A program made the translations under genes and the position numbers. Below are positions 3,001 through 64,000 of a stretch of 64,000 nucleotides of DNA, piece after piece. Numbering within the stretch: the first letter of the stretch is position 1; every line of letters starts with the position of its first letter. The notes below the pieces were generated by a model. The model did no database searches. It saw nothing but the letters and a program-made list of their open reading frames with translations, and had not been told where the DNA came from. The DNA lies in assembly GCA_965178125.1 (NCBI GenBank), contig OZ237737.1, forward strand, positions 124,001 through 188,000. Direction: 5' to 3'. The DNA is from Bilabrum cf. latius. Taxonomy: Eukaryota.

Positions 3001-3036
3001 CACGGGGTGCGGGCGCATGATGGCACGCGGAAATGA
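1..3036 (+). CDS. 5'-partial membrane protein: leucine-rich repeats + Cys-rich (GCC2/GCC3, TNFR-like) repeats + ~3 TM helices (>1011 aa with TAG=Gln)
   Basis: ORFs 73, 457, 1261, 1921, 2347 and 2542 share frame +1. They are separated only by TAG (454, 1228, 1825, 2260, 2539) and end at TGA 3034-3036. LRR motifs (LEELDVSRSGL, LRSINVQGNPL), CPAGHYC/CPLGSF repeats and hydrophobic segments are present. Confidence 0.8.
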
Positions 3037-3170
3037 ACCAAGCAAGAGTTTCGCTGAGTGAGGCCTAGTTTAAAGTTTATCGGGATAAAATTGCGATTAT
3101 TTGCCTTCAAAAACACGCAAGCACTTTTTTGTAGTCTTTCAGAGGCTCGCAGCATGCAATACTACCCCAC

Positions 3171-4106
3171 TCAGAAGTGCACCTCATCTGCTCCCTGGCT
3201 CTGTCCCTCCCTCGCCACCCCTTCTCCTTCCCCTGCAGAGGCTCCAAACACCCTCCTCCTCACCTCGATGGCCCGCGGCACCGCGCCGTCCATAGCATCG
3301 GCCAGCTGCTCCATGCCTTTCTTGTATGTCACGCTGTCAGCGGCGTGTCGCATCGCCGACTTTGACGTCCAGTGTGTCACACTCGTCACACTCACAACAC
3401 CACGGGTACCCTCTCTCCCTGGCACCTGCGGCGCGATACCCCCTACCCCTCCTCCTCCGCCATCGTGCCCCACGAGCAGCTCGGCACCGAGGAAGCCCTC
3501 AGAGATGCGGTATGCAGGCAGCGCGTGCGCCTCGTAGGCCTCCTCCACCGAGCGAGCGCGGTCTTGAGAGGGGAGATCGACGACCGAGACGCGCGTGTAC
3601 CCGGCGTGCGAGACCACGGGGCCTGCCGCAGGGGAGGTCCGGGCATTTGCCTCGCCTGCGCTCGATGTCCCTGAGCTGGGCTGGCCGGCCTCATCGGTCG
3701 TATTGAACTTGGCATAGCCAAACTCAATTCCTCGGCGCTTCGCAGCCGCTTCAGTAGAGCGATCTTCGTCGTAGCCTGGAACGCCCGCCTCAAAATAGTA
3801 GTCCTCTTCGCTGCGTGGCGGTCTAGTTCGACCACGGCCGCCAGGCGGGCGTTTTCGGCGTTTTGCCAAACGACTGTTCAGCGAGGCCTCACTATACCAG
3901 CCTACATCGGCTGGCGCTACGGGAGTGCCGTCTCCAGCCTCTGAATCCGACAGGGCACGCAAAGAAGAATGCAGCCCACGAGAGCTGGACATGGTTACCT
4001 CCACACGAGACCAATGCGATGCCTGACACCCTAGACATCCCATGATGCTTACATGTTGAGATTTAATTGCTTTTGCAATAACCGCTCGTGATTTAACTGC
4101 TCTCAT
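3171..4106 (-). CDS. hypothetical protein with possible C-terminal ABM-like (dimeric alpha/beta barrel) domain; start uncertain
   Basis: 311-aa ORF ending in TGA. The C-terminal pattern 'YEAHALPAYRISEGFLGAELL...SVTHWTSKSAM' resembles antibiotic-biosynthesis-monooxygenase folds. Confidence 0.5.
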   Translation of the reverse strand: MRAVKSRAVIAKAIKSQHVSIMGCLGCQASHWSRVEVTMSSSRGLHSSLRALSDSEAGDGTPVAPADVGWYSEASLNSRLAKRRKRPPGGRGRTRPPRSEEDYYFEAGVPGYDEDRSTEAAAKRRGIEFGYAKFNTTDEAGQPSSGTSSAGEANARTSPAAGPVVSHAGYTRVSVVDLPSQDRARSVEEAYEAHALPAYRISEGFLGAELLVGHDGGGGGVGGIAPQVPGREGTRGVVSVTSVTHWTSKSAMRHAADSVTYKKGMEQLADAMDGAVPRAIEVRRRVFGASAGEGEGVAREGQSQGADEVHF

Positions 4107-4187
4107 CGCTTCGATTATGGCCGTACGTCAGCAGTTGCCTTTGATCGCAAATCACATTTTGTAGCGCGTTAATTTCGGTTCGGAGAG

Positions 4188-4703
4188 ATGGCGGCTATCG
4201 ATGGCCATAGCAAGCTCATCTTCTCTCCCGATCGCGTGATGTTCTCCAAAAAGCATTCTGTTGATTTGCTTTTTACAGTTCATGCCGCTTTCGCACTGAT
4301 TGCAGGCCTCTTCGCGATTTTGCTGCCACACTTTTTTGAGCACTTCATGATTAGCTTTCATGAAGATGGGAGCGGCGGGTTTCATCCAGGAGGAGAAGCC
4401 AAAATTACGCATCTAGTCATTCGACTGTATGGTGCTCTCATCCTGGCCCAATCGTGGATTGTGTGGCATGCTAGAACGCAAGCTACTGGAGCTATGAGGC
4501 GCGCGCTTGTCCAAGCGTACTTTGGGATGTTCACCATCACCGCCCTTGCTCTACTGAGAGCGCAGCTGACTACAGGGGGCGGTTTCAATGCGTTCAACTG
4601 GCTGAACATCATTCTGTTTGCGGGGCTCGCTGGGTACTACGGGTGGTGGATCTTCGTTCAACCGCTATCTGTGTGGGAATTGCCAATGCGAGCAACTGTG
4701 TGA
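4188..4703 (+). CDS. small 4-TM membrane protein (possibly TP53I11/PIG11-like)
   Basis: ATG to TGA, 171 aa, four hydrophobic helices, 'RLYGALI' and 'LLRAQL' motifs. The family call is tentative. Confidence 0.65.
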   Translation: MAAIDGHSKLIFSPDRVMFSKKHSVDLLFTVHAAFALIAGLFAILLPHFFEHFMISFHEDGSGGFHPGGEAKITHLVIRLYGALILAQSWIVWHARTQATGAMRRALVQAYFGMFTITALALLRAQLTTGGGFNAFNWLNIILFAGLAGYYGWWIFVQPLSVWELPMRATV

Positions 4704-5500: not shown

Positions 5501-6157
5501 ATGGCTGGCAAAGGATCTTCGTTGTTTCGGGTAGGGGGCCGAGCTGGCACTGGGCTAGGAGGCGTGTCTAGGCGAAAGGTAAGATGTCTCTGTGGGTCTG
5601 CGAAGCACCTTCCATTCGGTCCCTGTCAACTTGGTTGGGATAGCGCCCCTAGTACTTCTCACTGTTCCTTTCGGCTAGAAATCTGTTTACGCTTGCAGGC
5701 GCGTGTGGAGTTGTCGGAGGACCAGAAAGCCGAGATCCGAGAAGCTTTTGACCTGTTCGACACGGATAACAACGGTGGGATTGACTACCACGAATTGAAA
5801 GTATGCTTGCGAGCCCTAGGATTTGACGTGACTAAGGATCAGGTTCGGAAGCTGATGACTGAGCATGATATCGAGGAGAAAGGGGAGATCAATTTCGAAG
5901 CCTTCACGGTCATCATGGCGGAGAAATTTGCGGAGAGAAATGAGGACGATGAGATCATGAAAGCCTTTCAGCTCTTTGATGAGGAAGGGAAGGGTACAAT
6001 CAGCATCAAGAATATGCGAAAAGTGGCGCGGGAGCTTGGCGAGAGCCTGTCCGAAGAGGAGCTGCGGGCCATGCTGGACGAGTTTTCGAGCGCGGGGGAC
6101 GGCGAGGTGACGCAGGAGGACTTCTTCGCAATTATGAAGGCGACAAGTGTGTACTGA
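5501..6157 (+). CDS. CETN3: centrin (centrin-3/Cdc31 type), one intron 5579-5698
   Basis: EF-hands '[32 protein letters not shown]' and '[15 protein letters not shown]'. GTAAG...TTGCAG intron. TGA stop. Confidence 0.9.
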
Positions 6158-6291: not shown

Positions 6292-7858
6292 TCAAATATT
6301 GACGTGCAAGATGTCTTTGGCAGCCTGCTCCAATCCCTCCCTATCCTCAGGGTGCGCGATGTCGATCAGCGCCCGCGCTCGCTCCCGGATGCTCTTGCCG
6401 AACAGGTGCGCGATCCCGTACTCTGTCACCACGTAATGCACGTGCGCGCGAGTGGTGACCACGCCCGCCCCCGGCTTGATGGTGGGCACGATCCTGCTGT
6501 CTCCCCTGCCCGTGCGGGAGGGAAGGGCAAGGATTGGGGTGCCGTTTGCGAGTGCTGCGCCGCGGAGGAAATCCACCTGGCCGCCCACTCCCGAGTAGAT
6601 GCGGGACCCGATCGAGTCAGAGACGATGTTCCCCGTCAGGTCCAGCTCGATGCACGAGTTGATGGCCGTCATGCCCGGCTGCTGCCTGATGAGCCCTGTG
6701 TCATTCGAGTAGTCGCTCGACTTGAAGAGCACGGAGGGGTTGTCGTCCAAGAAGTCGTACAGCTTCCTCGTACCGATGGCGAACGATGTCAGGATCTTGC
6801 CTGTGTGCTGCCCCTTGAGGTCATTCGTCACCACGCCAGACTCCACGAGAGGCAGGATCCCATCCGAGAACATCTCGGACCAGATGCTCAGCCTCCTGTG
6901 GCCACCCAGCTGCGAGAGCACAGCATCCGGGATGGACCCGATGCCCATCTGCAGAGTGGCGCCGTCCTTAACCAAGTTGTCCGCGATATGCTGGCCAATC
7001 TGCTACTGCACCTTGGAGGGCGGTGGAGGGCTCAGCTCGGGCAACTCCATGGCGTGCTCGACGACTGCGTCAAAGTGGGAGTTGTGGATCTGGCCGTCCC
7101 CAAAGGTGCGCGGCATGCGGGGGTTGTACTGCGCTACCAGAAATCGGGAGCACTGCACTGCAGCGCGGGCCACGTCGACCGACACTCCTAAGGAACAGTA
7201 GCCGAACCTGTCGGGGGGCGACACCTGCACGAGCGCAATATCAACCGGCATTAATCCGCGCTTGAACAGCAGCGGGATCTCAGACAGAAATATTGGCACG
7301 TAATCGCTCCTGCCCTCCGCGATGGCCTTGCGCTGGTTGGCCCCCGTGAAGAAATTCCTGGTCCTGAAGTGCTTCTCCATGCCGGGCGCCGCGTGCGGGG
7401 CGGGCCCCTCCGTATGTATGTTGCACACCTCGATCCCCTCAAGATCTTTGTCTTTTGCCACCCTGGCCATGGCTTCCACGAGTGGGGTGGGAGTGGCTGC
7501 CGCGCTGTGCACGAATATTCTCTGGCCCGATTCCATGAGTGGCTCCAAGGCCTCGTAGCAGCTGGTGGCGTGCTTTGGCGTGTGGCCCGGCACCTTATGG
7601 AAGGGCTCTGCGGGCAAGGGATACAAGGGATAGGATGAAAAAGGCACGCGGTATATCGTAGTCCGGGCAATATGTAGTGCTTTCTAACGCATTGTCGTCC
7701 ACCACCGCATTGAACAGCGATTGCGGTTCCACGCATGGTGAGTGAATTCCGTAGCCAAAGCAAAACCACCGAATTGAGACGCTGTGGCTGCTGGCCACGA
7801 ATGAGACCCAAAATGCAAGGCGCGTGAATCTTTGGCTCGGCAAGAGCTTTCTAAGCAT
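6292..7858 (-). CDS. acetyl-CoA hydrolase/4-hydroxybutyrate CoA-transferase family protein (ASCT subfamily 1B-like); 5' exon boundary uncertain
   Basis: Motifs FVHSAAATP, GATLQMGIGSIPDAV, SEMFSDG and SGVGGQVDF. The two ORFs join in frame through TAG 7003-7005 (KVQ*QIGQHIA). TGA stop. Confidence 0.9.
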
Positions 7859-8306: not shown

Positions 8307-9329
8307 ATGGCCGCCTTTCCGGGCAAAATTAGTAAGTTGTACTATTTCAACGGCCGGGGTCTTGGAGAGCAATGCAGAATAATACTTTCATCTGCTGGAA
8401 TTTGCTTTGAATCCAACGAGGTGGTGGTTCCAGATGAAATGCAGTCGATGAGGGACGAAGGGCGATTGCTATTGGACCAACTGCCGATGCTCGAGATGCC
8501 TGATGGATCGAGATACACCCAGTCCATGGCAATCGTGCGGCATGTTGCCCGAGTATCGCAGTTGTACGGCGCCACACCAGAGGAAGCCTCCACGTGCGAC
8601 CAGCTCGGGGACGGAATCCGAGACTTTCTCTCCAGCTTCACGCGAATTCCATTTGCACCCTCTAGTAATGACGCTTTGAATGATGCCTAGTTTAGAGCTG
8701 CGCCTAGATTCGCCCGCCTGATGGAGCGCCAGCTCGCTTCGAATGCGGCCAAGCATCGGAGCGCGGCCGCGAGCGCCGTCGGCACAGCGAAGCGAGTCCC
8801 CAGCGGAGCCCCTTCCTACGACGGCCCGGTGTTAGTGGGCGGCGGCCTGACATACCCTGACGTTACCATGACGGAGGTACTGCTCTACTGCGGCGAGTGC
8901 CTACGGCTGCCGCCAGCAGGTCTAGAGGCGGTGAAGCGAGCCGCTGCAGCAGCCACCGCTGACGGGAAGGAGCGCGATCTGCAGCAGGCCGTGGACTCGG
9001 CTGCGTGGCTGCTCTCGCATGGCCCAGAAGAAGGCGGGATCGGGCCGTGCCCCCTGCTGGCAGAGCACGTGCGCGCCATGGCTCGCTGGCCCAGGCTCAG
9101 GGACTACCTCGTCTCGGAGGATCGGCGGCCCGTGGGGGGCGAGGCGTATAGGGACAGGGTCCGTGCTGTGCTGGACCCACTGCGAGAGAAGGAGAACAAA
9201 TTAGCCGAGGAGCGGGCCCGGGCCTTTGAGGCCCTCTCGGCGACGGCGGCTGAAGCAGGGGCTGAAGCAGGGGCGGGGGAGGAGGGTGGGAGCGGCAAAA
9301 CTGGCGCTGAAGACGGCAAATCTTCCTAA
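8307..9329 (+). CDS. glutathione S-transferase (sigma/alpha-like) with Ala-rich insertions
   Basis: LYYFNGRGLGEQCR, QLPMLE, TQSMAIVRH and LTYPD motifs. In-frame TAG 8688-8690. TAA stop 9327-9329. Confidence 0.85.
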
Positions 9330-10199
9330 GCCTACCTGGATCTGCATTTGTGTGTGATGATTAATTAGTCGTATCGTCAAATTCAATCGTCATCATCACC
9401 TTCGAGACCTTGTCTTGAACCCTCGTCCAAAACTACTAGTTCTCTGTGGCACTAATCGAGACTTCCGAGCTCACAAGTGGTGTCTCGAAACCGAGAATCG
9501 GGATTAGTTGACCCAGAGGCAAGTGCACCCGCCGCGATGGGGTTGTGGTGCCACTGGGGCTCTTGGAGCCTCGAGCTCCATTCCCTGAGGAGGGGCTTCA
9601 CCCCTGCGCCTGCACGTCCCTGCTCCGACCCGCTGGTCGACCCCGGTCCCAACTTGCTCAATGGCTGCCGCAGGCGCATCGAGATTTGCCGCTGCCCCTG
9701 CATCTACCTCCACTGCTTGGTGCCGAGCCTTCTCTGCTGTCTTCCTCCTCTGCTCCTCCTCCGTGGCGACATTACGCGCAGTGATCAGACGGACGTGGTT
9801 TCAATAGTCGTCCATGATATGCCCGTAGCTTCGCCAACGCCATCGTGATGCGCCTGGCCCATGTCTTGACCTGGGCGTCCACGCTCTTGCTCTGCTTCCT
9901 CCCGATCCGATACGTCAGGATCCTCGCAAGCTCTTCCAGGACCTTCCCGGTGTGTAGATCTTGCCGCCCTGCGCAGGGCCTGCAGGCTGGTCCAGAAACA
10001 CGCTTTCGATCTACGCAGCATCACTATTCGTGCCGTGATAAGATATAAATCTAGTTGATGCATTCGGTACTATAAATAGAAATAGAAATACATTGTTGTA
10101 CTATTCGGGTTGATGTGATAGCGTGCACTATTGAGTTTCTCATCAATATACCAGATCTCCGCAAGAACGATCCTCCAACACCACTTGAGAATCACAAGA

Positions 10200-10994
10200 A
10201 TGGCAGGGGTAGCGGACAGTGGTACTGGCAAAGTAGAAGTAGAAGTAGAAGTAGAAGCGTAGAGGTCTATTGTCAAATTTGGCTGCGGTACCCTCAACCT
10301 CGACCACACAAAGAAGATTGAAGGGATCGACAAGGACTCGTTCGCTGACACCATGACAACTACGTGGAGAAAGCTGGATAAACCTGCCATCCTCGGATGG
10401 TCAGAGGTAGGGTTCGCATACAGGCCACGCGTGTTTTGCGAGGCAAACCCTGAACTTGATTACTGTGATGCGAATTTCTTTAGGCAAGATCGTACTGCGA
10501 TCCTTTGGGATGCGAGTCGGGTTTCAACAGCCGAGGAGACCAAAACAGGCAGGGTTTGTTCTCCAACTATATCTGACATGGGTAGGTATATGGCAACGCA
10601 TCTGCACTTGCCGGCGACAGAAGAGAATGGACTTGACAGTGGTGGGTTTGTTCAGCTCGCGATCCAAGTCCACATGCCTCACAAAGATTCAAGCAAAAAG
10701 CATGGTAAAGGCCTGAAGCAACGATCTTAGCGATTACTCAGCAAGTTTGTGGAAGAATAGAAAGGAGAAGTCGATGGAATCCTCATTATCGGAGATTTCA
10801 ATGCCAGACCGAGCCAAGTGAAGGAGTACCTGCCGGAGTTGCACATGCTGTTTGACAGTGAGGAAGACGAGTCAGGACAGCGACGAATTGATAATATTCT
10901 GTACGATGGGGTATCAGTTTCAAACCCCCTTGAATTGCGAGATTCCCCGTTTGAGCACCGTCCCATCGCCGCGACAGTGTCAATCATTGAATGA
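10200..10994 (+). CDS. stand-alone exonuclease-endonuclease-phosphatase (EEP/DNase I-like) protein, 264 aa
   Basis: ATG 10200 to TGA 10992 with three in-frame TAGs (10260, 10728, ~10758). Motifs GTLN, LGWSE, VHMP, IIGDFNA, RIDNILY and EHRPI. Confidence 0.75.
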
Positions 10995-12955: not shown

Positions 12956-15575
12956 TCACTTCGCCTCCTCCGGGGCATACCCAATGCCCCTGAAGGCCTC
13001 CTGGATCTCGTCCAAGATGGCTGGATCATCGATGGTGGCTGGCACCCGGTACTGCCTCCCGTCCGCGATGGCCCGCATCACGTTCCTTAGCACCTTGCCC
13101 GACCGTGTCTTGGGCAGCCTGGGCACCCGCACCACCTGTTTCGCCCGCAGAGACGCCACAGGACCCACTTCCTCCCGCACGATAGAGGCGATCTCGCCCG
13201 CCACATCGCCCCACCCAGCGCCCCCTTGCCCATCGCCATCACCCGCGCCGCTCTTCATGACCACCACTCCCAGAGGCACCTGCCCTTTGAGCTCGTCCGC
13301 CGCCCCCACCACCGCGCACTCCGCCACACCTGGATGGCTCGCGATGGCGGCCTCGATGGCCCCCGTGGACAGGCGGTGCCCCGCCACGTTGAGCACGTCA
13401 TCAAGTCGCGCCATCAGCGACAAGTACCCGTCAGCGTCCCTGGTGCCCGCATCGCCAACCGCAAAGTACCCCGGAAACGGGGCCAAATACGAGGCCTGGA
13501 ACCTGTCTTCATCGTCGTGCAGGCCCATGAGCGCCCCCGGCGGGAGGGGCAGCCGGATGGCCAGCGGGCCGAGCTCCCCGTCAGTGGCCTCTGACAGGAA
13601 GGGGGCCGGGTGCAGCCTGCTGTGGTGGGAGAGGGACAGGTCATCCAGCCCCCTGTGCCCCAGGGCTTGCTCCACGCCCTCCTCTGTGGGAGGCAGACCC
13701 GACTCCCTGACGTCACTGGAGTGCTCGCTGACGTCAGTCTCAAAGAAGGCCTCGTGCTGCGCGTGCTCCTCCCGAGCCTCGTCACCCGCCCCGTCGCTCT
13801 CCTGCCCCGGCTTCAACACGCGCACGTCCCATCCGGGCACGGGGAGCCCCGCGCTCCCCGGCTTCACGTCTGCGGCTCCGAGTCCTTCGCACGTGGCCAC
13901 GCACGGACTCCCGGTCTCGGTCATCCAGAACTGGTCCCGCACCATCCTGAGGGCCTCCTAGCTGGGCGCGGCCGTCTCGCTCCCGGGGTCGATCCCGCGC
14001 GCTCTCGCCAGCAGGCGTGCCAGCCACTGCACCGTGTCTGGGTCTGCCCTCTCCCCCGCAAGGAACATCGTCTCCAGGGGGAACCGCCCGCCAGCACCCT
14101 GCACCGCTTCCTCCCCCTCACCACCGTCCTGCCCCTGCCCCTGCCCCTGCCCCTGCCCCCGCCCCTGTGCCTGTGCCAGTGCGGCCTCCCTTGCGAGCAG
14201 TTCGCCCGTCGCGTCAACCTGCTTGATAGCACGGATGGCCGTCGGGGCGGTGAACATCCGGCGAACGTTCCTCTCCCGGATGACCCTCCAGAACTCCCCC
14301 GCGTCTGGCGTGCCCACGGGCTTACCCTCGAACATGACAGTGGTGAGGCCCTTCAGCAGCGGGCCATAGCAGATGTACGAAGCTCCCACAACCCACCCCA
14401 GGTCAGAAGCAGCCCACCAGGTGTCTCCCTTCTCCATCCCGAAGACGCCCTCTGTGCCCATGGTCCAGTGCAGGGCCGTCATGTAGCCCCCGGTGTCCCG
14501 CACCACGCCCTTGGGCCTCCCGGTGCTGCCCGAGGTGTATATGATGTAGGACGGGTGGTCTCCGCGGAGGGGCTGCGGCTTGGCCGCCCTGCCTTCCCTC
14601 TGCACGTGCCTCACGGCCTCGTCCCAATCGGAGCAGGGCACACCGTGAGGCATCGGCGACCCCTCGTCCCACGGGTGCTGCTGCCGCTGCAGCACCATGA
14701 CTCCGCCCCGGGGCCGGTGCTCCGCTTGTTCGAGGGCCCCGTGCAGCAGGGGCTGGTAGGGAACAATCCTCTCTCCCTCGATCCCGCAGGACGCCGCCAG
14801 GATGATGCTCGGTTTCGCGTCGTCGATCCTGGTCGCGACCTCGTGGGAGGCGAACCCACCGAACACGACCGAGTGCACGGCCCCGATGCGGACGCAGGCC
14901 AGCATCGCAATCAGAGTTTCGGGCACCATAGGCATGTAAATGATCACGCGGTCGCCCCTGCCGACCCCCTTGTCGTGGAGGGCAGAGGCCAGCTGGGAGA
15001 CCTTTGTCTGCAGCTGAGAGTACGTGATCGTGCGGGAGGTTTTTGTCACAGGAGACTCCCACGCGATTGCCTGCGGCATTCAGCGGGGGTAATAAAATGA
15101 ATGGGAGGAAATGCGCGCATCGACTTGGGACATTCGGTAGCCACGTGCAGCGGCCGCGGGCAGCTGACCCCAACCGGACTGCCAGAGCCGGATGGCGTGC
15201 TCATGCTGAGTCCCCGGTACGAACCATGGACAGCTCAGTACTCACCGGCTGGTCACCTAGACCATCCTCTACGTGCCTATCAATGCAAGCATAGGACAGA
15301 TTTGTTCTGCCATCGGCAAACCACTTCCCGTGCTACGCTACGTCCATGTCCAATATTTTCGACGGCTCGTGAAACCAAGGTAGTTCTCGAGCCGCCTTCG
15401 CCCAGAATCGCACGGGATTCTCCATTGATTGGTGGAATGAGTCGGCATACTCGCTGGGTCTGGTGGAGAATCGCACTGCAGGCTGCTAGAATGCACTGGC
15501 AGCACGATGCACGTGAAACCTGCGTCCACCATATTGCGGACGTGCAGACTGCAACAGCCTGCGAATCCTATTCAT
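12956..15575 (-). CDS. ACSS3: propionyl-CoA synthetase / acyl-CoA synthetase short-chain family 3, mitochondrial; one intron ~15071-15245
   Basis: YIIYTSGSTGRPKG, FWMTETG, DDVLNVAGHRLS and LPKTRSGK motifs. The N-terminal exon 'FWAKAA...WFADGRTNLSYACIDRHV' is visible only with TAG read-through. Three TAGs, TGA stop. Confidence 0.88.
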
Positions 15576-16631: not shown

Positions 16632-19600
16632 TTACAGCTGCGGCTGCTGGTCAGGGGCAGACTCCAGCGCATGGGCGAGGGGATTCATAGAATGCTGCTG
16701 GGCAGAGGGCTCAGCGGAAGCACCACAGTCCGAGGCATCTGCCTGGCCAGGGGAGACACTGGCTGCCACCGCAGCGTCCTCATTCACTGCTTGCGGCTCC
16801 TCTTGTTCGTTATCCGGCTGCATTTCGCGCCCGACGGACTGGCCCTCGCCCTTGTCCTCGTCCTTGTCCTTGCCTTCCTGGCCTTCCTCACCAGTAGATC
16901 TAGCCAGCATCATCGGGTTGGAAATAACGTCCTCGACCACGGATTTGCTCTCTGCAGCGCGCGCGTCCGGGCGAGCTGAAGAGCCCCCTCCGCTACCGAG
17001 TGACCTGCCAGTGGACAGCGATGACAGACCCATGCTGCCCTTTCGAACAGTCTCCCCGGCCTTGCGGCCACCCAGGAGAGAGCGCATGGAACGGCGGGAA
17101 GCCAGCCCCGCGGCGAGCCCCTGCACCGTGGCACCACTCCTGGGAGCTTGCTGGCTGAACTTGAGCTTGAAAGAGCTCGTCGTGGCCGGTCCAGGGCTGC
17201 TGGTGGGCGTCCCAGCGGCAGCAGTGCCAGCCGCGCCTCGGCGCCGTCGGCCTGTTGCACCCAGCCGCACTGCATTGGATCCAGTGGCGGCGGATCCTGC
17301 CGCTTTAGCCATCTCCACCTGCTGCTCCCTCAGTCTCTCCTTGAGGTGTCCCACGGAGCTGTGCAGGCTGCGCATCCACAGGCGGACGGCAGGCCACGAC
17401 TGCTGAGAAGGAGGGTGGTCCATATCCAGCATCTTGTCCACGGTTGTGCTGCCAGCCACTCCCAATGCGCCGCTACCTGCTGTGTCAGAGCCAGCGCGCT
17501 GCATGGCTTGCATCATCAGCGGGTTGCTGGCCATCTCAAGATCATCCTCGCCGTCTGCGTGCAGCATCTCGGCGCCCTTCTTGCCGCCCTTACCGCTCTT
17601 GGCGACGTCGTGGGCCTTGGCCCGCTCAGCGATGGACTTGCAGCACCCGCACGACTGCAGCGTAGCAGCAGCATGCTCAGGAGCAACGCCAAAGTATATA
17701 TCCAGAGCCAGCACGATCAGGGCGTACATCACGATGACCACGAGGATGAAGACCGTGGTCCACGTGATGGCGTCGTACTCGCTCTGATAGTAGTCGATCT
17801 GGTCGGGGTCGAATCGGCTCGAGGCCAGCATGACGGCGGCGAGGCATACGAGGATACCGCAGCCCAGCAGGAAGGCCTCGACCTGGTTGTAGTCCAGCAA
17901 GTACTTGACGATCTGCTCGCCGACCGTGTGCGAAGACTTGCGAGAGTCGAGGAGTGCGTCCACCTTGTGCGTCCTCTTGTAGTTCTTCTCCAGCATAGCC
18001 TGGATCTCGGACTCGATCCGGGCATGCTCGATGCTGGACAGCACTTTGACACGATGCTCGGCGATCACGCGTGAGTGGTCGCCACGAGACATGAAGGGCT
18101 CGTGGCGGATCTGCAGCACGAAGGCAGCGAACAGGGCCAGCATCAGCACGCTCATCTGGTACGTCGGGGAGACACGGAAGACGAGCGAAATCGCCGCGAT
18201 AGCAAACTTCCGCATGATGACAACGATCATCCATCCGTTGCTCCCGGGCTTGAACGGGTAGTAGAGCTGGTGCCATGCCTTGCGGAAGTGGTACAGCTTG
18301 CTCTTGTTGTCGTTGCCTGTACCTGCCGCACGCAGGATCTGGTCGTGCTTGATTGAGTTCTTGTTCGAACGGACGAACCAGAACATTGCCAGGGGCAGCA
18401 CAATGCTGTAGCTCAGGAAAGCAGCTAAACCGAAGGGGAACAGCATCAGCTGCTTGGAGCCTGGCTGCCAGCACGGGTAATCGAGCAGACCGTCCATGTA
18501 CGTCACTCCCTGTGGGTCCGGAGGAGTCGTCTGCAGGCAGCTCACGGTGCTGAGAGCAGCCTGGGTCACAAACAGGTAGCACACGCGCGACAGGATGATG
18601 AGCGAGCTGATCAGCTGCGGCGCATGGGCGTGCAGGTGCTCCTTGCCCTTGCTGGTGCAACACAGCTTATACAAGAGTCGAGCTATGTACACGACAAAGA
18701 ATAGGACAACAACGAGAACCGGTAGAAGCACAGTGGCTGCGAACTTCTGCTCGTAGGTCACATCGGGCTGGATGCACTCCGGGGCCGCGAGCTCGACGTT
18801 CAGGTTGAAGGCGGACAGGATCTGGAAGAAGCGCTCCAGGACCGGGGGCCAGCGGATGCGTGCGTTGGAGAACAGAGCCAACACCTGGAAGGTGTCAGCG
18901 CAGATCATGATCAGCACGTTCTTGATGCCCTTCCTGTTGAGGATGAAGCCAGCGGTCCCTGCCATCATGGCAGCGATTCCCATTCCCACGAAGATAAGCC
19001 ACGGCCTGTCAGGGCACTTCCTGCACTCACCACCGATCCGGTAATGCGTGCCCTTGACGCACTGCGAGCACCTTTCCGCAGTGTATCCCTCGGCGCAGGT
19101 GTTGTTCCCGACACAGGCCCACGTAGGCTCGCACGGTGCCGTGTACATGCACTGCTGCTCCCTGAGCACCGACAGCTCGTGGAACTCGTTCCTGCTCTGG
19201 TGGCAGTACCTGGTGTCCTTGTCGTCGCCACTCGTGACGTTGTAATCCAGTCTCCAGAATCCTTCGCCGCTCGTGACCAGATCCTCGTACGACTCGCCGC
19301 CGGGGCACACAGCACCGATGCGCTCCTCCTCGCAGTTCACGCAGAACTCGCCCACAAGCCCGTAAAGGTCTTTCTCGCACTGGAAGAAGACCAGCTCCTC
19401 GTACTCGTAGATGATGTAGGGCTCTGTGCGGTTTGCAGCCAGAATGGTCATGTTCTTCAGACCCACGCGGTCGCGCTGGGCCTCGCACTGCAGTAGCCCG
19501 TCGTTCAGCCACTGCGGTTCAATGCACTCCAGACCACCGATGACAATCTCCACAAGTGTCGGCTCGCCGCCGAAGTTCTTACCACGGATACGCACCTCGT

Positions 19601-35030: not shown

Positions 35031-37475
<2,445 letters not shown>

Positions 37476-37591
37476 GGCTGTAATGGACCACTCATTTGAG
37501 AAATGAGTTGATTCGCTGCGATTCGCCAGCGAACTTCCGGAAAGAGCTTGTGGACACGCTTAATTTTTTTTTACAGACTACCCGGCAAGTA

Positions 37592-48000: not shown

Positions 48001-48831
48001 TCTGCACCCGCCCCCGCCCCTGCCCCTGCGGCGGGTGCAGGCGGTGCCGGCCTCAAGATGGAGAGCCTGACGGCTCCTGCAGCCGTGGAGTCGGCCGTGG
48101 GTGCGGGGGTGCCTCGGCGGCCCGAGCGGGGCGCCATGGACCTTGGGGGCGACGGGACTTTGCGAGTGGGCGTGCAGCTGGGCTTCCGGCCCGAGTCGCT
48201 GATGGTGGTGGTGCACGTGGGGAACAGCGGGGGCTCCCCCGTGTCCGGGGTGCAGGTGACCCCGCAGCCCCTTAGCTTCCTGAGCGTCAGGGCGGTGACG
48301 GCGGGGTCGGGGGACGTGCAGGCGGACGCTGCCGGGGCCAAGCTCTCGGCCCCGCTGGGCCCCGGGCAGTCGAGGTGCTTCGCGATGCAGTACGTGATCG
48401 CGAACGTGCCGGCCAACTCGCCCTTGCAGCTGCGGGTGAGCTACGCCGGTGCAGCCGCGCCCCTCGTGGTCAGCGTGCCGCTGTCCGTGCTGGACCTGCT
48501 GCGACCCAAGCCCATGGCCACGCCCGAGTTCGGGGGCATGTGGACCAACCCGGCGTACGGGCACCAGGGCAGCGCCAGCTCCCATGTGGCCGCGCCCTCC
48601 ACGCTCGAAGCCGTGCAGTCGCTGCTCCCCGTCCGCGCGCACCACCACTCGATCGAGGGCATCCCCGCCACGCAGGAGGTCATCGCGTCCTCTCTGCTCA
48701 TGGGCACCCCACAGCACTCGCTGCTCCACTGCAAGCTCGCGGGAGGCGGCCAGCTCGGCATCACAGTCAAGACCGCCGACGCGAGCTTCACCGCGACCAT
48801 CGCAGAGGCGCTCAATGGGAAGTTTGCGTGA
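45033..48831 (+). CDS. AP4E1: AP-4 complex subunit epsilon, intron 45108-45258
   Basis: 'LSREFF*LV*SIGESKSKQ|EEDRII', 'YVEMLG', 'EKRVGYL', 'DYHRVPAPWIQI' and a C-terminal appendage domain. Three in-frame TAGs. TGA stop. Confidence 0.92.
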
Positions 48832-50921: not shown

Positions 50922-51014
50922 TTTTTCAATGTGAGCGAGAACTATATGATTTCACCAAGACGATTAAAATAATGTACTTCATATGGTTATTATAATTAAA
51001 GGCCTACATTACGT

Positions 51015-51086
51015 TCCGTAATGGTGTAATGGTTAGCATATCTGGCTCTCACTCAGGTAATCCGGGTTCAATTCCCGGTTACGGAA
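51015..51086 (+). tRNA. tRNA-Glu, anticodon CTC
   Basis: Acceptor stem TCCGTAA/TTACGGA, D-arm TGGTGTAATGGTTAGCA, anticodon arm TCTGG-CTCTCAC-TCAGG, T-loop GGTTCAATTCC, followed by an oligo-T Pol III terminator. Confidence 0.95.
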
Positions 51087-51490
51087 ATTTTTTTCCCATG
51101 GTGCAGCATTAATTTTGCCCCGTGCATTGGACAACAGCACTGCGGCACTGATAGCATCATATCACATCACGATGCCTTCTCGAGTTGGCCCGGAGGGAAC
51201 AAATGACCACTGTGCGACCGCCAACCCTGCCACCTGAAACACGAAACCGATGATGCCAGTTGACTGAGTCGAGTGGGGAGTGCGGCGGCGCTCTGGCGGT
51301 GTCGCAAGAAGCGCAAGGACACGCAGGTATCAGTCTTCTTGCCGCAAACGGTGCAGCTACCCTACAGAAGTCAAACGCAGCCGGCAGGCCCGCCAAGGCC
51401 AGGAACGGCTCATGAATGTCAGTGGCAAATTCGCCAGAAGTGCAAGACGATCGAAATGTCCACATTCAGAATTGCACCCACAGATCCCGA

Positions 51491-56145: not shown

Positions 56146-59100
56146 ATGGCAATCGCAGACATTGATGAAACGCTATAGTAGCTATCAGACTTTGCGGCCT
56201 CGCTGAAATTCGATGATAATGATGGCCAAGAGACGCGTGTTTCACCTGGTGCTGCTGCTGAGGCTTCAGATGCAACTGCAGGAAGAAACGAACCCAGAAG
56301 TGATACAGTAGGGAATACTTCCAATCAAACAAAAAGATTTGCTCAGGACAAGCCCTCGTGGCTGACGTCGCCAGCTTCTAGTCGCCGCACGGCTACTATA
56401 CTGGCTGAGTTGCAGGGGGCGTCAAAATCTGATGAATCAGCCCTCTCAGCTTCAGCTGCTGGTAAAACTTTGGATGAAGTTCTCTGTTATGAGCCCGCCG
56501 AGTTGAGGATATTGTCGCCGCAGTTGCGACGTGGTGTAGCTGCTCATAATAGGGTACCTATCGACCCGCAGGGGATGTCAGTGTCGATGTACCCGGGAGA
56601 AATACCCAGCGGGGTACTTGGTAGTGTGGGCACCCCATCAAACCGAATATCTAGACTAGAGTAGACGTCCCGCCGCCCCATCCATGCAGCGGGCCCCACC
56701 AGCACGCGGGGCTCTCACAGCCGTCCCCGCCGCGCCTCGTGGACCGCGGGCCGGGCCAGCCATGCAGCCCCCTACTAGCAGTTGCACAGTTTAGGGCCCC
56801 CTGGATTAGCACTGCTGACACCCCGGCCGGGACAGGGGCAGGGGCAGGGGCAGGGGCAGGAATGGGAGGAGGATGCAGAACTGCACCAATGGGGAGCCTC
56901 CAGCAAGACTGCTCGCCATTCGACACCCCCCCCCGGTGCTTCAAGGGCCCCGGGAAGGCGAGTCGCCAGGCGCAGCTCCAGCAAGACTCGAAAGAATTCC
57001 TCTAGGGGCAGAACTGTCTCCACTGCCGCCGTACATCATGAGGGATATTCCCAATCGGGACGGCGGCAGCTGATGCGGGCCAGCCGCAGCGCCCCTTCGT
57101 CGCCGCCTCGTCTGCGCCCCGGCGTGCACTCGTCACACGGACCCGACGAGCAGGCAGGAATCCCCATGAGCAGCGTGTTGGCCGTGGAGAAGCTGCTCGC
57201 CGCGCTGGCCTCGCCTCAGAAACAAGAGGGCCAGATCGACTAGCAGCAGCGTGCGCGTGGACACGGGCAGGAGCATGGGCAGGGGCAGATTCAACCGCAA
57301 ACGGTTGGGGAAGGGGCCTCTGCTGCGATGGAAGAAAGCGGAAAGGGACAGGCAACAGTGATTAGTCTGGGCACAGAGGCTCGTACTTCTGCAGTCACCA
57401 GCAAAGTGCAGCATCAGTCGCGGGGGCACCGGGATCCAGTGCACTAGGCTGGCAATGGCACTGGTGCAGGGACTCGAGGTGGCACGAGCCGGAGCCGCAG
57501 GCTTTCCTTCGATGCGCTTGTGGCCCGTGTGGCCGATAGGGGCGCGCTGAGGGGCGGGAAACTTCGAAGTGGTCGTCGTGTCCCGTTGAAATCTAGTGCG
57601 CCGCCACCAGCACTAACCTCAGCCCCTGCCCCTGCCCCTGCCCCTGCCCCTGCCCCTGCCCCTGCCGCTGCTGCACCAAGAAGCTCCGGCGGCAAGACGC
57701 TCCGAGCGAGAGGAGGCCGGCTCATGCTCCCGAGCACGACCGCATTGGCAGACAGCCAAGCGTCTGCAGCACCAGCATCGAACAGCAGCCCAGGGGCAGG
57801 CAGGAGTTCATCGATGCCCCCAAGGCCGCAGTCCAAAGACATAGAGGCACGCGCGGTGCAACGGGCAGAGGAACAGCGGGACAATCACGGCAAACCCACG
57901 CTCCACCTGAATACACAGAAAATTCAGCGAGACACCGCCGCTGCCTCGGACGCAGACGACAAACACACAGCGAGCCCCACCCCCTAGCCCTAGTCTCACG
58001 AAGACGGGGCCATGCAACAGCAAGGCACTCCGGCCCCCGACAGCCTGGCCCTGCTGGCAGCGGGAGACAGCAGCGGGCTGGCGGCTGCCCTGCTGCAGGC
58101 CGCTAGGCAACGGGACGATGCCATGCGGGAGGTGATCCAGCTCAGGACGGACGCGCAGCTGGCCAACGAGGCGCTGGCATCCGCTCGGGCGGACGCAGAG
58201 GCGGCGACTGCGAGCAGAGAGGAGACCATGCAGCAGATCGAGCGGATGAAGCGGGCGGAGGAGGGCAGAGCAAAGCAGCTGCAAGGCGTCACGGAGCGGG
58301 CGTCAAAGCTGAAGGAGGAGAGAGATGCCCTGCAGTCGCAAATGGCGCAGCTGCGATCGCAGCTGGACCAGGCCAGCGAGCGGCACCAGAAAGAGGTGAA
58401 AGAGCTCGAGGGCGAAGTGGAGCGGGAGCGATCGGGCGCAACTGAGGCCAAGCAGAGGGTGCAGCAGCTCGAGGCACAGGCCAGGGAACAAGTTGCGGAT
58501 CTGCAGGCAGAGCTGAGGAGCGCACGGGCAGAGGCAGGCGCGTCCCGAGCGGTGCTGGAGAGCGAGAAGGCGTGCAGGCGGGAGGCAGAGGCCAGGGCAG
58601 AGGCGCTCGCCAGGCAGCTGGGCGCGGCGCGGTGGATGGGTGAAGAAGCAGAGCGGCGGGGCACTGGGCTAGTCAGACGCCGTGACGAGTCTGGCGAGGC
58701 GCGTGATGTAATGGGCGCTGCGGGTGCACCAATTGTAAGTTCCTAGACTTCGCTGGCCTCCTCTGGCCAGGCAAAGGGCACTAGCCGGGCGACCAACGTG
58801 GCTGCCGGCCTTCTTGCCGGCAGTGTTGCTGTTTCTCCGGCCAAGCACGCCTCCCAGCAAGGCAGCAAACCTGCTGCAGTGGCCCCACTGCGCGATTCGG
58901 ACGCCGGACAGCCCAAGATGCAGACAGAGAAAATCCAACCCAGCCCAAGTAGGCAGCCATCAGATGACTCAAAGAAGCAGACACAGCCTCTTTTGGATGC
59001 TGTGAAAGGACGGATGAGTGCCAAATCGGCCTAGTCGTGGTCACGAGAAGGCGCACAGTCCACCGACACCGACACCGCCGTGAGCCAGGCAGACCAAGCG

Positions 59101-61713
59101 CAACCGAGCAGCACCCCATCATTTACCCAAGCGCGCTAGCAGAAGGCGGTACTGCAGCAGCCCGGCGCGTCAGCCGAAACGGATGTGCTTTCCGCGCCCG
59201 CGCAACGGCCGGGTGTCCCGCGGCACCAGAGCACTCCGCCATCCAAGCGAAGAAGGTCCTCGAGGAGCAGGATGGCAGCCAGCCAGGAGTCCATCGGGGC
59301 GATGCCGCCGTCCCTCCAAGACCACCGTCCCTCCCTCACCGAGGCCTCTTAGATAGACACCACCACGCGCTAGACATCTGGCCCATAGGCCGGCAAGTCC
59401 AACAGCAGCGGCTCTGTCACATCTGCAGCTTTGAGCAGCTCTCAAAGCCTGCCACAGCGGCAGGCTCGTGAGGACGAGATAAAAGGTGGTACCACTGATG
59501 CCAGTGCGGGAACGAGAGTGGCATAGTCGTGCCCGTCCGTGGTACCCGCTCGAGCGCCCGCTCTGCAGCAAGACAATGCTCGGGATCGAGGCGGCGCGGC
59601 CACCAAACGGGCTGGCCCGTCACTCCTTTCCTCTGTGGCTGTTCCCGGTTCCGTGACAGCATCCATGCACACGCAGGTGCCTGTGAGGAGAGAACAACGA
59701 GGCAGCGATGGCACTGCTGGGGGCGGGGTTAAGAATGCTGCTGCAAGTGCTGGTGCTGCCGAATCAGTGCACGTGGCAACGCACGGGCACGCAAGCGAGC
59801 GCGAGCTACAGCACGACCTAGGCAAGACAGCACCGAGCCAGACCCCCCAAGCACAGCAGCGCGCAGCAAGGCTTGCTCTCCCCAAGACAAAAAGCACCGG
59901 CTCCGGCCCACCCAACTTGGCTGGTGCTGGAAGATAGCAGCAAAAGGCGACCGAGAAGCAATTCGTTGAGGATACTGCTGCCATGGGCGTGCCTGCAGGT
60001 GTTCGTCCGCATGCAGCAGCCGATGGGAGTGATTCGGACAGGGTGGCATCGCGTGGAACGGAGAGTGTGCCCAGACTGGGACGAGGCATGCCCGGGGGAA
60101 TGGGAGAGGGCGGGGCCGGGATGGAGCTGATCGCGGCAATCGCCGCCATGGCCGAGGCAGTAGAGGGCGAGCGGGGTCCCGACGGTCTCGCCGCTCTGAT
60201 GGATGCAATGGCTGGGGGTGGAAGCGGGGGAGGGGGTGGCGGGTATGAGTTCGACGATGCGATGCAGATGCAAGCCGAGGAGGAGGAGGACATGGCAGAT
60301 GTAGCTGCTCTCCCAGACATCCCCCTGCGGTCTGAGTCGCGCGGCGGAAGTGCAGGCACCGACGCCGGCAGCCAGGACGGGTATGATGGGAGCATACCGG
60401 CGAATGAACAGACAGACGCGCAAGAGACAGGAGAAGGTGAAGGACAAGCATCGATGATCGACGTGTAGAGTGCGGCCCCACCTGCCCTGCAAGGTGAACG
60501 CAACGACCTCCCGTATCCCAAAGCTGTCCGAGATGCTGATGCTTCGAGCGACTCTCGGCGGGTCAAGGAGCTAGGGGACGGCGTCGGTGTCGACACCAAA
60601 GTGCCATCGGGTGCCGCTCGCCAGCGGCTGGAAGGCCTGCTGCTGGCGCATCGCAGGTTTGAGTCCATGATTGATTCGGCTGGGACTGAGAGCGGCCCGG
60701 TCTCAGGCTTGAAGGGTGAGTTTGATACTGGGGAGCCGTGCGACGGGCCGAAGGGCGGTATCAACGGCGGTCATGCCAAGCAGCAGAGGGAGACCAGCGT
60801 GCGCGCGTTGAATGCAGGCATGCCAGTGGAAGAAGCTCCCTTGGACGCAGAAACGGCTCAGCACGCCCAAAGCGTACAGGAAGAGCCCAGCCTGGATGGA
60901 ATGCTGCCGATCGACGAGCAGTACGACCCTGACAGGCCGCTGGACGCATCCTTGCTCACGCTGTCACCGTCTCCTGAGAGGGCGCGCAGCGGCGGCAGGA
61001 CGGCGTGTCCTCCGGGCCCTGACGGCAAGCAAAACAACAGTGGAGTCGAGCTAGCAGTGTCCGATATATTGGCAAACGAAGGTGAGGAATCGCTGCAAGC
61101 ATCGGAACATGCCGATGCATCCGTGGATGGCTCGTCCGTGCCGACAGTCGGCTCCACCTCATTGGCATCCGCCGAGGGCAAGGAGGTACCCAACACCGGA
61201 CCTGAGCAGGCATCTGGAGCATCAAAGCCGAGAAAGACGAAGAAAGTCAAGAAGAAGAAGAGGACAAAGAGCAAGACCACCTAGGGCAGCGCGGGGCCTG
61301 CACATGGGGCCAGAGCGCAGGGCAAGACTGCAATCAGCAAGCCAGCCCCCAGCAAGGCCAAAAAGGCAACCACACTGCCAGCCACGACCTCCAAGCGGCC
61401 GGGGCAAGGCAAAGCCACGGCGGGCCCGAGACGTGGATCCACGGCTTCGCAGTCGAGCAGCCACGGCCCCACGCACTTGGCAACGTCTTCCGGACTACGT
61501 GATGCGGTGCGCGAGCGGCTTGGGATGCTGGGGGGCGGGGGTGCGGTCCGGGTGCCCCTCGGTGCGGTGCCTGCAGGCGCCTCGGCCGATCGCGGCAGCG
61601 CTGCGCCCGGCGTCTCGGGGTCGAAGGCAGGGCGGTCTGCTTCCCAGGTAGGCGGTGCAAGGCGAGTGCTGGCGCGCAGGCCCTCGTCGAGGTACGGCTC
61701 GATGCCGAGGTGA
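56146..61713 (+). CDS. large low-complexity protein with a central coiled coil (~1,855 aa), function unknown
   Basis: Frame +1 runs from ATG 56146 to TGA 61711 with about 18 TAGs and no TAA or TGA. Coiled coil at ~58080-58630. Confidence 0.75.
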
Positions 61714-61847
61714 TCGGATCCAGACTGGATTGTGACCAGCGCAAGCTGGACACGCATACGGCGCTGAGAAGCGCAGATAATGTCAATTTTAATCATATTA
61801 CACATAGCCGGAACTGCACTCAAGGCACGCGCAAATTCTTCAGCATC

Positions 61848-64000
61848 TCAGTCCAGCACCAGCAGCACGCTCTGAGGCAGGTGATCCGAAGGGAATTGTG
61901 GCGACGGCAGGCCCTTGTATCTCCTAATCTCCATGTCAGGCACCTCGGACAGTGCCGCACAGGGCAGCAGGCCGCCCCTGTACATGGCCTCTCGGCTCTT
62001 TGCCTCTTTGTCTGAGCCAGCTCCTTTCGCCTTACCCTTGCCCTTGCCCTTGCCTCCCGCGCGCCTGCCACCCTTGGGCTTCGCAGCCGAGGATGAAACG
62101 CGCCCTGCGCCCAGCCCGAGCGCCCCCGGGTCCGGCCCGCAGTAGACCCAGTCCAGCGCAGCGTGGAACTCGCCCACGTGGTGCGTGAACACGGGGTCGT
62201 GCCCGAAGCAGGCAGACACCGACGAGGCCAAGGACAGCGGCTTGTCCAGCATGGAAGTAGACAGCAGCCCGTGCCACGCACCCTCCGGTGCCAGCCATCC
62301 TTCCGGTACCATATCTCGAAGGCGGGGCAGCGACAGCAGTGCAGCCGGGTATGGCACACCCTTCTTCTCTCCCTCTCGAATCTCGCTCGTGCTGGCCTTG
62401 ACGGTGCCCCGTGACAGCAGCCTGTGCATGGGGTGCGAGCTGAGCGCGTTAAAGTCCCCACCGATGACGAAGAAGGGCCAGCTCGGCCGCCCAAAGCTGC
62501 CCTTGGCCAGCTGCCCATCGGGGTCCGTTGCCTCCAGTGAGGCCCGAAGCCTCGCCACGGTGGCATGCACGCACGCGGACATCTCCATGAGCTGCAGGTG
62601 GGGCTGCCTGAACTGCGCCGTGATGTGCACGCTCACGGCCATGCCCACGTGCGCCGTTCTCCTGTGCCTCAGAACCACAGCAGCGGCCACCTCCGGCAGC
62701 GTCGACTGGAACAGCGCCCTGGTCTTGGCCGGCTGCTCCGATTGGGAGATGGCCTCGTCCCCTAGGTGCACGTCGTGCTTCGAGATGCACTCCCAGTCGG
62801 CCGTCTGCCAGTGAATCGAGGGCCCGATCGCCCGACCAGCCGTGGGCCTGCCGCCTGCCTTGCGCTTGCGGCAGTGCAGCCCCTCGTAGCCGATCGTGAC
62901 GAGTGCGCCGTTGAGCCAGCGCTCGTGGTTCTGCTCAGAGGAGCCCCTTCCATTGCGGTTGCCGATCCGGACAGGCATGGGATCCGCCTCTGCGCCGCCC
63001 TTCTCTTCTTTGCCCTCGCCCGCACCTGCACCGCTGCTGGCACTACCACTACCGCTGCCGCCCGTCTCTTTCTTGGCGTCCTCCTTGGCTGCTTCGTCTG
63101 CCCTGCGCTTGAATGCCTGCGCGTCCTCCTCCTTTGGTGGCGCGTCCTTGACAACGAGAGCGACAGCGTCCGGCGTCTGCCAGCTCTGGACCTCCTGCAG
63201 CATGAGGATGGACGGGAGGCGGAACCTGATCTCCTGCATGTGCAGCGCGCGGCGCCACTCCCACTGCATTGCGGTGCGGGAGGCGTACGGGAACTGGTGC
63301 GGCCCGCAGAGGTCGCCTGCCAGGAGGTTGCGAGTCTCGACCACGAAGGCAGTCTTGTCCCGGCCCAACCTCTCGAGGAAGCAGCGCTCCAACGCCGCCA
63401 CGGCACGAGGTACAAGTCTATCCGCCGCTCCGACGTCAAAGGAATCCCGCCGCGCAACCGCAGACGTTTGATGCCCGCCGGCTGCACCAGCCTGCCCTGT
63501 CGCCGCCACTGCCCCAGCCGAGGCACGATCGTCAGCCCCATCAGACGACAAAGACGAAGGAGATGAAAGAGGCTCCAGCTCCAAACGACGAGCCAGCAAG
63601 GCGGCGGGCGCGCATCCCCGCAGGCCCAGCGGCCGGCTGTACCACCGCTTGCCGCTGGCCAGCCGTGCGGCCTCCTTGCGCCCCACCCCATCCGTGGCCC
63701 CATCGCTGCTGAACCGCGCCTCTCCGTCGCTTCCCTCTCGTAGCATCGGCCGGGCCTCCTGCCCGCCGGTGCTGGACGCACCCTCGGTGGATCCACGCGA
63801 CGATGACGCGGATCCGCTCGCGCCACCGGGCGCCAGCGCGGGCACGCCGGGCCTAGCCCCCAGCGTGGCCCCGCCCACCGTGCTCGCATCACCTCCAATG
63901 ACCGAGCGCGCGCGGATGGCCTTTCTCGCCCTGTTCACTCGTGACTGCATGCGCAGCGCGCTGGTGATGAGTGCCTGCAGCAAGTGGGGAGACTCCTCTC
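61848..64000 (-). CDS. CCR4/nocturnin/ANGEL/PDE12-like EEP deadenylase-family protein, 5'-partial
   Basis: 'RNLLA', 'WEWRR', 'LMLQEVQ', 'GGDFNA', 'LDWVY' and 'FPSDHLP' motifs. TGA stop. Confidence 0.85.
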   Translation of the reverse strand, partial: EESPHLLQALITSALRMQSRVNRARKAIRARSVIGGDASTVGGATLGARPGVPALAPGGASGSASSSRGSTEGASSTGGQEARPMLREGSDGEARFSSDGATDGVGRKEAARLASGKRWYSRPLGLRGCAPAALLARRLELEPLSSPSSLSSDGADDRASAGAVAATGQAGAAGGHQTSAVARRDSFDVGAADRLVPRAVAALERCFLERLGRDKTAFVVETRNLLAGDLCGPHQFPYASRTAMQWEWRRALHMQEIRFRLPSILMLQEVQSWQTPDAVALVVKDAPPKEEDAQAFKRRADEAAKEDAKKETGGSGSGSASSGAGAGEGKEEKGGAEADPMPVRIGNRNGRGSSEQNHERWLNGALVTIGYEGLHCRKRKAGGRPTAGRAIGPSIHWQTADWECISKHDVHLGDEAISQSEQPAKTRALFQSTLPEVAAAVVLRHRRTAHVGMAVSVHITAQFRQPHLQLMEMSACVHATVARLRASLEATDPDGQLAKGSFGRPSWPFFVIGGDFNALSSHPMHRLLSRGTVKASTSEIREGEKKGVPYPAALLSLPRLRDMVPEGWLAPEGAWHGLLSTSMLDKPLSLASSVSACFGHDPVFTHHVGEFHAALDWVYCGPDPGALGLGAGRVSSSAAKPKGGRRAGGKGKGKGKAKGAGSDKEAKSREAMYRGGLLPCAALSEVPDMEIRRYKGLPSPQFPSDHLPQSVLLVLD

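Follow-up and report, generated by a model that had tools for sequence, protein, structure and literature searches.

UAG read as glutamine apart from UAA in the GC-rich nuclear genes of a probable stramenopile

Introduction

The stop codons UAA and UAG usually change meaning together when a nuclear genetic code is altered, as stated in PMC5304391, but cases in which the two have come apart are already documented there and in PMC11687900. PMC5304391 describes the first nuclear codes in which UAG and UAA differ in meaning, with UAG read as leucine in the rhizarian exLh and as glutamine in Iotanema, and PMC11687900 records cases confined to UAG that include, among others, Scotinosphaera (serine), two phyllopharyngean ciliate lineages and Protocruzia tuzeti (glutamine). 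Here we analyze a 64 kb stretch of DNA from Bilabrum cf. latius (positions 124,001 to 188,000 of contig OZ237737.1, assembly GCA_965178125.1). We refer to the whole of this stretch as the window, and all coordinates below are counted from its first base unless otherwise stated. Many of its genes, including a giant gene of about 5,540 codons, contain in-frame TAG codons. An earlier reading of the same DNA from its letters alone (the original prediction) proposed that UAG is a sense codon here and that UAA is not, and took joint reassignment to be the norm; that premise is correct as a generality, with the uncoupled codes just listed as its documented exceptions.

Iotanema spirale (Fornicata) is like the window in that UAG alone has moved to glutamine and, in the window probably, UAA has been kept as a stop. 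This implies the same minimal mechanism, with a tRNA-Gln(CUA) and an eRF1 to which UAG is no longer a stop (PMC5304391). It is, however, a metamonad rather than a stramenopile, and its primary stop is UAA, whereas UGA accounts for 17 of the 19 gene ends in the window. A change in the eRF1 of Iotanema has been reported (T32G in the GTS motif; the rhizarian has alanine at position 69), whereas the evidence here comes from genomic DNA, which is GC-rich (61%), and from an ortholog. The phyllopharyngean ciliates and P. tuzeti have the pattern of NCBI table 15, which is likely to be that of the window as well, in which TAG is glutamine and TAA and TGA are stops (PMC11687900), but ciliates are a known hot-spot of code change and the host of the window appears to be a stramenopile. 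The use of table 15 for some phages has no bearing on the spliced eukaryotic genes of the window.

Codes of the code 6 type, which are found in many ciliates, hexamitid diplomonads, some ulvophytes, Streblomastix and Amoeboaphelidium, likewise have UAG as glutamine and UGA as a stop (PMC5304391, PMC11687900), but in the window TAA ends two open reading frames (ORFs) and is absent in frame, where about 20 such codons are expected for the window plus its ortholog. exLh and Scotinosphaera, both of which have kept UAA as a stop, resemble the window in having UAG uncoupled from UAA (PMC5304391, PMC11687900), and differ from it in the amino acid, because the ortholog and homolog columns examined here point to glutamine.

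Our full-text literature search found no nuclear reassignment of UAG in a stramenopile, including labyrinthulomycetes and thraustochytrids, in the limited collection of papers that it covered. The public sequencing runs that we used date from 2025, and a description of a stramenopile code may be in preparation or may lie outside the searched literature. The uncoupling of UAG from UAA is not new in kind; what differs here is the host lineage, the GC-rich background and the use of UGA as the main stop. Few nuclear genomes are known to give the two codons separate meanings, namely those of a rhizarian, of Iotanema, of Scotinosphaera and of several ciliates (PMC5304391, PMC11687900), and PMC5304391 ties the question of how UAG and UAA are separated to the engineering of eukaryotic codes.

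Results and Discussion

TAG occurs inside genes and is absent from gene ends

We assigned 19 gene ends in the window, the outermost at 3034–3036 and 61848–61850. Seventeen of them are TGA, two are TAA (9327–9329 on the + strand and 16632–16634 on the − strand), and none is TAG. The original prediction had given 22 ends, with 20 TGA, two TAA and no TAG; its lack of TAG ends, both of its TAA codons and its outer span reappear in our census, but the count comes down to 19 ends and 17 TGA codons. Two of the 19 gene models (3171–4106, − strand, and 10197–10994, + strand) are less certain than the others, having no Pfam match and only weak codon bias.

Within the window genes, which add up to 16,941 codons, we counted 72 in-frame TAG codons but no TAA and no TGA, in line with the roughly 75 internal TAG and zero internal TAA of the original prediction. 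The off frames of the same genes contain 20 and 43 TAA codons, and 306 and 309 TGA codons. The genes that carry the 72 in-frame TAG codons have full-length Pfam matches. TGA directly follows the last EF-hand match of a centrin-like gene (last exon 5720–6157, + strand; Pfam EF-hand_7, profile positions 2–67 of 67, at residues 222–285 of 290), and it also follows the AP4E appendage domain of the AP-4 epsilon gene (residues 1133–1234 of 1239). When TAG is treated as a sense codon, the longest stop-to-stop frame in the window grows from 4,764 nt under the standard code to 16,665 nt, and the summed length of ORFs of at least 900 nt grows from 50,994 nt to 112,728 nt; if TAA is made sense instead, the sum is only 56,343 nt.

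TAG makes up about 9–10% of all glutamine codons in the window, and its share drops as the G+C content of third codon positions (GC3) rises (Spearman correlation −0.56, p = 0.015, 18 genes). Genes with GC3 values of 0.84–0.90 have no TAG or one, whereas 18 of the 134 glutamine codons are TAG in a low-bias gene at 56146–61713 (+ strand), a low-complexity gene of 1,855 codons that belongs to no known family and ends in TGA. This negative correlation fits a minor sense codon that is avoided in strongly biased genes.

A giant gene with 23 in-frame TAG codons is under purifying selection

The giant gene (16632–33262, − strand) runs for about 5,540 codons with 23 TAG codons and no TAA or TGA in frame, and ends at a TAA. 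Its protein has N-terminal ephrin-receptor-like cysteine repeats, about 15 cadherin and many IPT/TIG repeats, and a multi-pass membrane region at the C-terminus; the Pfam matches are to Cadherin (in 9 + 6 stretches) and TIG. A representative search returned 1,552 related proteins, some of them up to 7,000 residues long. The start codon and signal peptide are not in the giant ORF, and we did not find the 5′ exon or exons upstream of it, where the start of the gene must lie. The 40 strain differences listed (of 434), all within this gene, fall mostly at codon position 3 (32 differences), with six at position 1 and two at position 2. TAG codons stand in frame and are subject to purifying selection, and the genes are functional.

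These observations bear on the possibility that there has been no code change at all, and that the TAG codons are removed or altered before translation (by tiny introns or RNA editing) or belong to decaying pseudogenes. Introns do occur in the window. The acyl-CoA synthetase gene (approximately 12956–15519, − strand) contains a 175-nt phase 0 intron with GT..AG borders at 15071–15245 (− strand), which is missing from contigs of two public runs, X1 and X8, and retained in a contig from a third, X3; its excision joins the upstream ACAS_N exon to the AMP-binding exon and restores the frame. Spliceosomal introns are thus present in the window genes, and at least one of them is real. However, a contig from X1–one of the two runs with the spliced form of this neighboring gene–is identical to the window over positions 22746–24048 of the giant gene, including the in-frame TAG codons at 23769–23771 and 23175–23177. 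In addition, two species have frames that remain open over 16.6 kb and 12.8 kb, the variation is biased towards third positions, and three TAG sites are common to both species (see below). We consider an unchanged code to be extremely improbable.

Inside the giant gene, the contigs from X1, X3 and X8 also contain segments that have the same length as the window sequence but are strongly diverged from it, for example at 20843–21118 and 25169–25255. These diverged segments may represent a second haplotype, a paralog or a close strain. Small pairs of compensating insertions and deletions are present in the run contigs as well, for example at 18692/18695 and 21877–21890.

TAG sites are common to the window and an ortholog

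A search for related loci returned one metagenome contig, L001, of 15,079 nt with 58% G+C, on which an ortholog of the giant gene occupies contig positions 2294–15079. Its protein is 70.4% identical to the giant protein of the window over 4,234 aligned columns. Under the standard code the L001 frame extends for 714 codons at most, whereas with TAG as sense it continues for 4,262 codons to the end of the contig, and it contains 20 TAG codons in frame but no TAA and no TGA. The ortholog alignment shows that three TAG sites are common to the two loci (window positions 32562–32564, 27300–27302 and 21864–21866, all on the − strand), from which it follows that the reassignment is older than the split between the two species. 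The alignment thus indicates that UAG reassignment is a trait of a clade, common to at least one related species.

Orthologs of the giant gene that were predicted with the standard code are present in the databases only as fragments of 138–389 residues, including one from a 15,129-nt contig. Taken alone, the short fragments P0241–P0245 had S, M, M, A, E and T opposite six TAG codons of the window, and seemed to be contrary evidence until the full L001 sequence was compared reciprocally.

Glutamine is the residue indicated at TAG sites

The 20 TAG sites of L001 correspond in the window to glutamine codons at 12 sites (10 CAG and two CAA), to TAG at three, and to codons for T, R, A, D and S at one site each, so that among the 17 sites that are not TAG in both species 12 are glutamine and no other residue occurs more than once. 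As a baseline, 51% of the ordinary glutamine sites of the window (n = 140) have glutamine in L001 and 9% have TAG.

For a comparison with more distant proteins, we aligned 723 domain matches from 159 proteins to a stretch of 1,101 residues from the giant protein, with TAG masked as X. Two in-frame TAG codons on the − strand, at 22686–22688 and 20745–20747, lie in different IPT/TIG repeats but occupy the same motif column, the glutamine of Gly-Gly-Gln-x-Ser. The column is glutamine in 248 of 327 homolog domains at the first site (76%; leucine in 21 of 327) and in 39 of 63 at the second (62%; leucine in 5 of 63), and both codons are CAA in L001. A third TAG column is divided between glutamate and glutamine (E in 134 and Q in 113 of 453 homolog domains). 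When log-likelihoods were pooled over TAG sites, glutamine was the best of the 20 residues.

Further sites agree with this assignment. The TAG at 21336–21338 (− strand) is CAG in the X1 and X8 contigs, through an A>G difference on the + strand at 21338, and is the one TAG-site change among the 40 of 434 differences listed. In the AP-4 epsilon gene (45334–48831, + strand), the TAG at 47173–47175 fills the glutamine slot of a tandem Gly/Gln-rich peptide repeat of three units, and the other units have CAA and CAG at this slot. In the gamma carbonic anhydrase gene (43795–44466, − strand), the residue at the TAG at 44386–44388 is Q in three and H in two of the five best solved homologs. Homolog searches with the acetyl-CoA hydrolase and AP-4 epsilon proteins yielded no informative TAG column, one being variable and the other of low complexity.

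UAG could in principle be a sense codon for some other residue (leucine as in the rhizarian exLh, serine, glutamate or lysine) or be ambiguous, and three results lean that way. The comparison with L001 is asymmetric: when the 21 aligned TAG sites of the window are looked up in L001, only five are glutamine and three are TAG, and the other 13 are non-glutamine residues (V, M, A, S, E, H, T and G). A relative with 98% identity has lysine where the acetyl-CoA hydrolase gene of the window has TAG, although that column is variable. The margin of the pooled likelihood is modest (−30.57 for Q vs −31.82 for K), with K, R and E all close behind. Many of the TAG codons in the window sit in variable stretches. 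The asymmetry between the window and L001 may in part reflect the location of TAG at weakly constrained sites, and the TAG codons of the two lineages might differ in age or origin. On the other side are the glutamines opposite 12 of the 17 L001 sites, the low counts of leucine in the two conserved columns, and the TAG/CAG variant at 21338. We therefore think it highly improbable that UAG has another meaning or is ambiguous; TAG is almost certainly a sense codon for glutamine.

TAA is likely to be a working terminator

If TAA were used as a glutamine codon in proportion to CAA (16.6% of CAA + CAG), we would expect 14.5 in-frame TAA codons in the window and 5.7 in L001, but none is seen in either (Poisson P = 5 × 10−7 and 0.003, respectively), in a total of about 21,200 codons. 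This expectation is partly circular because the ORFs are bounded by TAA or TGA, yet the family matches are full length inside the ORFs. Codon bias also stops at the two TAA ends. Beyond the TAA of the giant gene (16632–16634, − strand), the following 94 codons, which run as far as the first TGA, have a score of −0.148 per codon, compared to a minimum of −0.084 among 545 windows inside the gene and +0.161 for its last 94 codons. Beyond the TAA of a GST-like gene (8307–9329, + strand; TAA at 9327–9329), the next 42 codons score −0.416 vs an in-gene minimum of −0.097, and GC3 falls from 0.57 to 0.37 across the TAA.

A code of the code 6 type, in which UAA and UAG are both glutamine, would require TAA to be too rare to be seen in 64 kb of GC-rich DNA and both TAA ends to be read through to the next TGA. 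It gains some credit from the high GC3 and from the low share of CAA among CAA and CAG codons. Moreover, the case for UAA as a stop is based on two ends out of 19, both after non-conserved tails; the original prediction made this same reservation, and our census came to the same two ends. The drop in GC3 at the TAA of the giant gene is also small, from 0.67 in the last 30 codons to 0.61 in the extension, which is only moderately lower than the value for the gene (0.74). Against it are the zero count of in-frame TAA and the codon scores past both TAA ends, which are lower than in every window inside the respective gene.

The sole in-frame TAA adjoining coding sequence is at 33297–33299 (− strand), just upstream of the giant ORF, and it is located behind a likely splice acceptor, a pyrimidine-rich tract that ends in AG at approximately 33263, before the first codons of the Cys repeats. 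The sequence further upstream is rich in stops and lower in G+C. We rejected this TAA as a sense codon because a likely acceptor, predicted from the sequence, follows it, and we read it as intronic. A code 6 type is therefore very unlikely, and we regard TAA as a likely working terminator.

A second way in which the gene ends could mislead is a context-dependent code of the kind already described for Condylostoma and Blastocrithidia (PMC5304391), with UAG read as glutamine internally but as a stop near true mRNA ends, so that some of the tails after late TAG codons would be untranslated. Two genes have such tails: the last TAG is 21 codons before the TGA in the desaturase gene and 51 codons before it in the PP2A B″ gene, and neither tail is conserved. 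However, TAG is found at none of the 19 gene ends, admittedly a small sample, and GC3 after these two late TAG codons is 0.86 (desaturase) and 0.80 (PP2A B″), compared to 0.33–0.73 in the 30 codons that follow real stops. A context-dependent code is, like code 6, very improbable.

The core of the original prediction, that UAG is sense and UAA is not, holds up on four counts: TAG at glutamine columns, zero TAA in frame, zero TAG at gene ends, and codon bias that stops at TAA. Two observations that were named in advance as incompatible with it, TAA in frame at glutamine positions and TAG at gene ends, were looked for among the window genes, and no instance of either was found.

The host is placed among stramenopiles outside oomycetes and ochrophytes

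The G+C content varies between 56% and 66% along the window (61% overall), and the genes are of eukaryotic families. These include AP-4 epsilon adaptin, a PP2A B″-type EF-hand subunit, a cytochrome-b5-fused fatty-acid desaturase, gamma carbonic anhydrase, acetyl-CoA hydrolase/transferase, acyl-CoA synthetase, a PNP-oxidase domain protein, a thioredoxin protein and the centrin-like protein, in addition to the giant protein with its cadherin, IPT/TIG and ephrin-receptor-like repeats. A prokaryotic or phage origin of the window was rejected because its genes are eukaryotic and spliced.

The AP-4 epsilon protein was used to place the host. Every named sequence among the 120 matches listed is from a stramenopile, with 50–57% identity, and these named matches come from oomycetes, brown algae, diatoms, chrysophytes and one dictyochophyte. 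A 37-row maximum-likelihood tree, built quickly from this single gene with no outgroup, puts the window in a clade of nine rows (eight unnamed sequences and the window) with a support value of 98 in the Shimodaira-Hasegawa-like approximate likelihood ratio test (SH-aLRT). Outside this clade lie 10 rows on the side of the oomycetes and 16 on that of the ochrophytes. As far as a single-gene phylogeny goes, this shows that the host is a stramenopile outside the oomycetes and ochrophytes; the tree resolves nothing finer. A Protein Atlas search with AP-4 epsilon returned generic adaptin clusters only, which are uninformative for taxonomy. High G+C, few introns and a front-end desaturase would presumably fit a labyrinthulomycete-like organism.

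A probable glutamine code confined to UAG, and how it could work

Taken together, the results make it likely that the window follows a code in which UAG alone has become glutamine (the NCBI table 15 pattern), with UGA as the main stop and UAA as a rare one, and that this code is common to a stramenopile-like clade. Several points count against such a reading. Those given above are the 13 non-glutamine residues opposite TAG codons of the window in L001, the lysine in the close relative, the modest margin of the pooled likelihood, the two-case basis for UAA and the small fall in GC3 at the end of the giant gene. To these can be added that no tRNA-Gln(CUA) gene was found in the window (only a tRNA-Glu(CUC)) or in L001 (which has no tRNA), and no eRF1 gene in the window. 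Also, X1, X3 and X8 are public runs that were compared as contigs, and the RNA nature of X1 and X8 is a guess from one spliced joint; none of the listed runs that contain the locus is recorded as RNA.

With a UAG-only glutamine code, the window would come from the nuclear genome of a stramenopile that is rich in GC and poor in introns, and in which cytoplasmic ribosomes insert glutamine at UAG. The expected decoder is tRNA-Gln(CUA), because no anticodon other than CUA recognizes UAG while failing to pair with UAA. By analogy with the systems in PMC5304391, it would probably derive from tRNA-Gln(CUG), which is one base away, and would pair with UAG but not with UAA. By the same analogy, eRF1 would have lost its affinity for the third-position G of UAG and kept its recognition of UAA and UGA.

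Whether the change was an independent one is a separate question. We see an even chance that an independent, clade-wide change of UAG to glutamine took place in a GC-rich heterotrophic stramenopile outside the oomycetes and ochrophytes, with UGA already the dominant stop at its origin, and that this is the first non-canonical nuclear code to be reported for stramenopiles. If so, UAG would be open to capture by itself under GC pressure, with neither the AT-rich background nor the ciliate-type biology that marks most earlier cases. As an additional, independent case, a GC-rich stramenopile that looks culturable and has compact genes would also be a natural test of which changes in eRF1 and tRNA are sufficient to separate UAG from UAA. 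There is a practical consequence too: gene callers that use the standard code fragment the genes of this lineage, so annotations of genomes and metagenome bins from the clade will contain serious errors unless table 15 is used.

Other features of the window

The homolog of acetyl-CoA hydrolase/4-hydroxybutyrate CoA-transferase (6292–7710, − strand) has an unusually flat profile of similarity, with 54–63% identity alike to animal, bacterial and Nannochloropsis proteins. A copy of this gene with 98% identity is present in another assembly, which shows that sequence data already exist for a very close strain or species. The tRNA-Glu(CUC) gene mentioned above (51014–51087, + strand), located between two protein genes, is the sole RNA gene that we found in the window. 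Several proteins, encoded at 35031–37475 (− strand), 45334–48831 (+ strand) and 12956–15069 (− strand), contain long runs of dipeptides, (Ala-Pro)n and (Gly-Gln)n, for which the DNA is microsatellite-like. The PNP-oxidase domain protein has about 20 Ala-Pro units in a run, together with a very long N-terminal extension.

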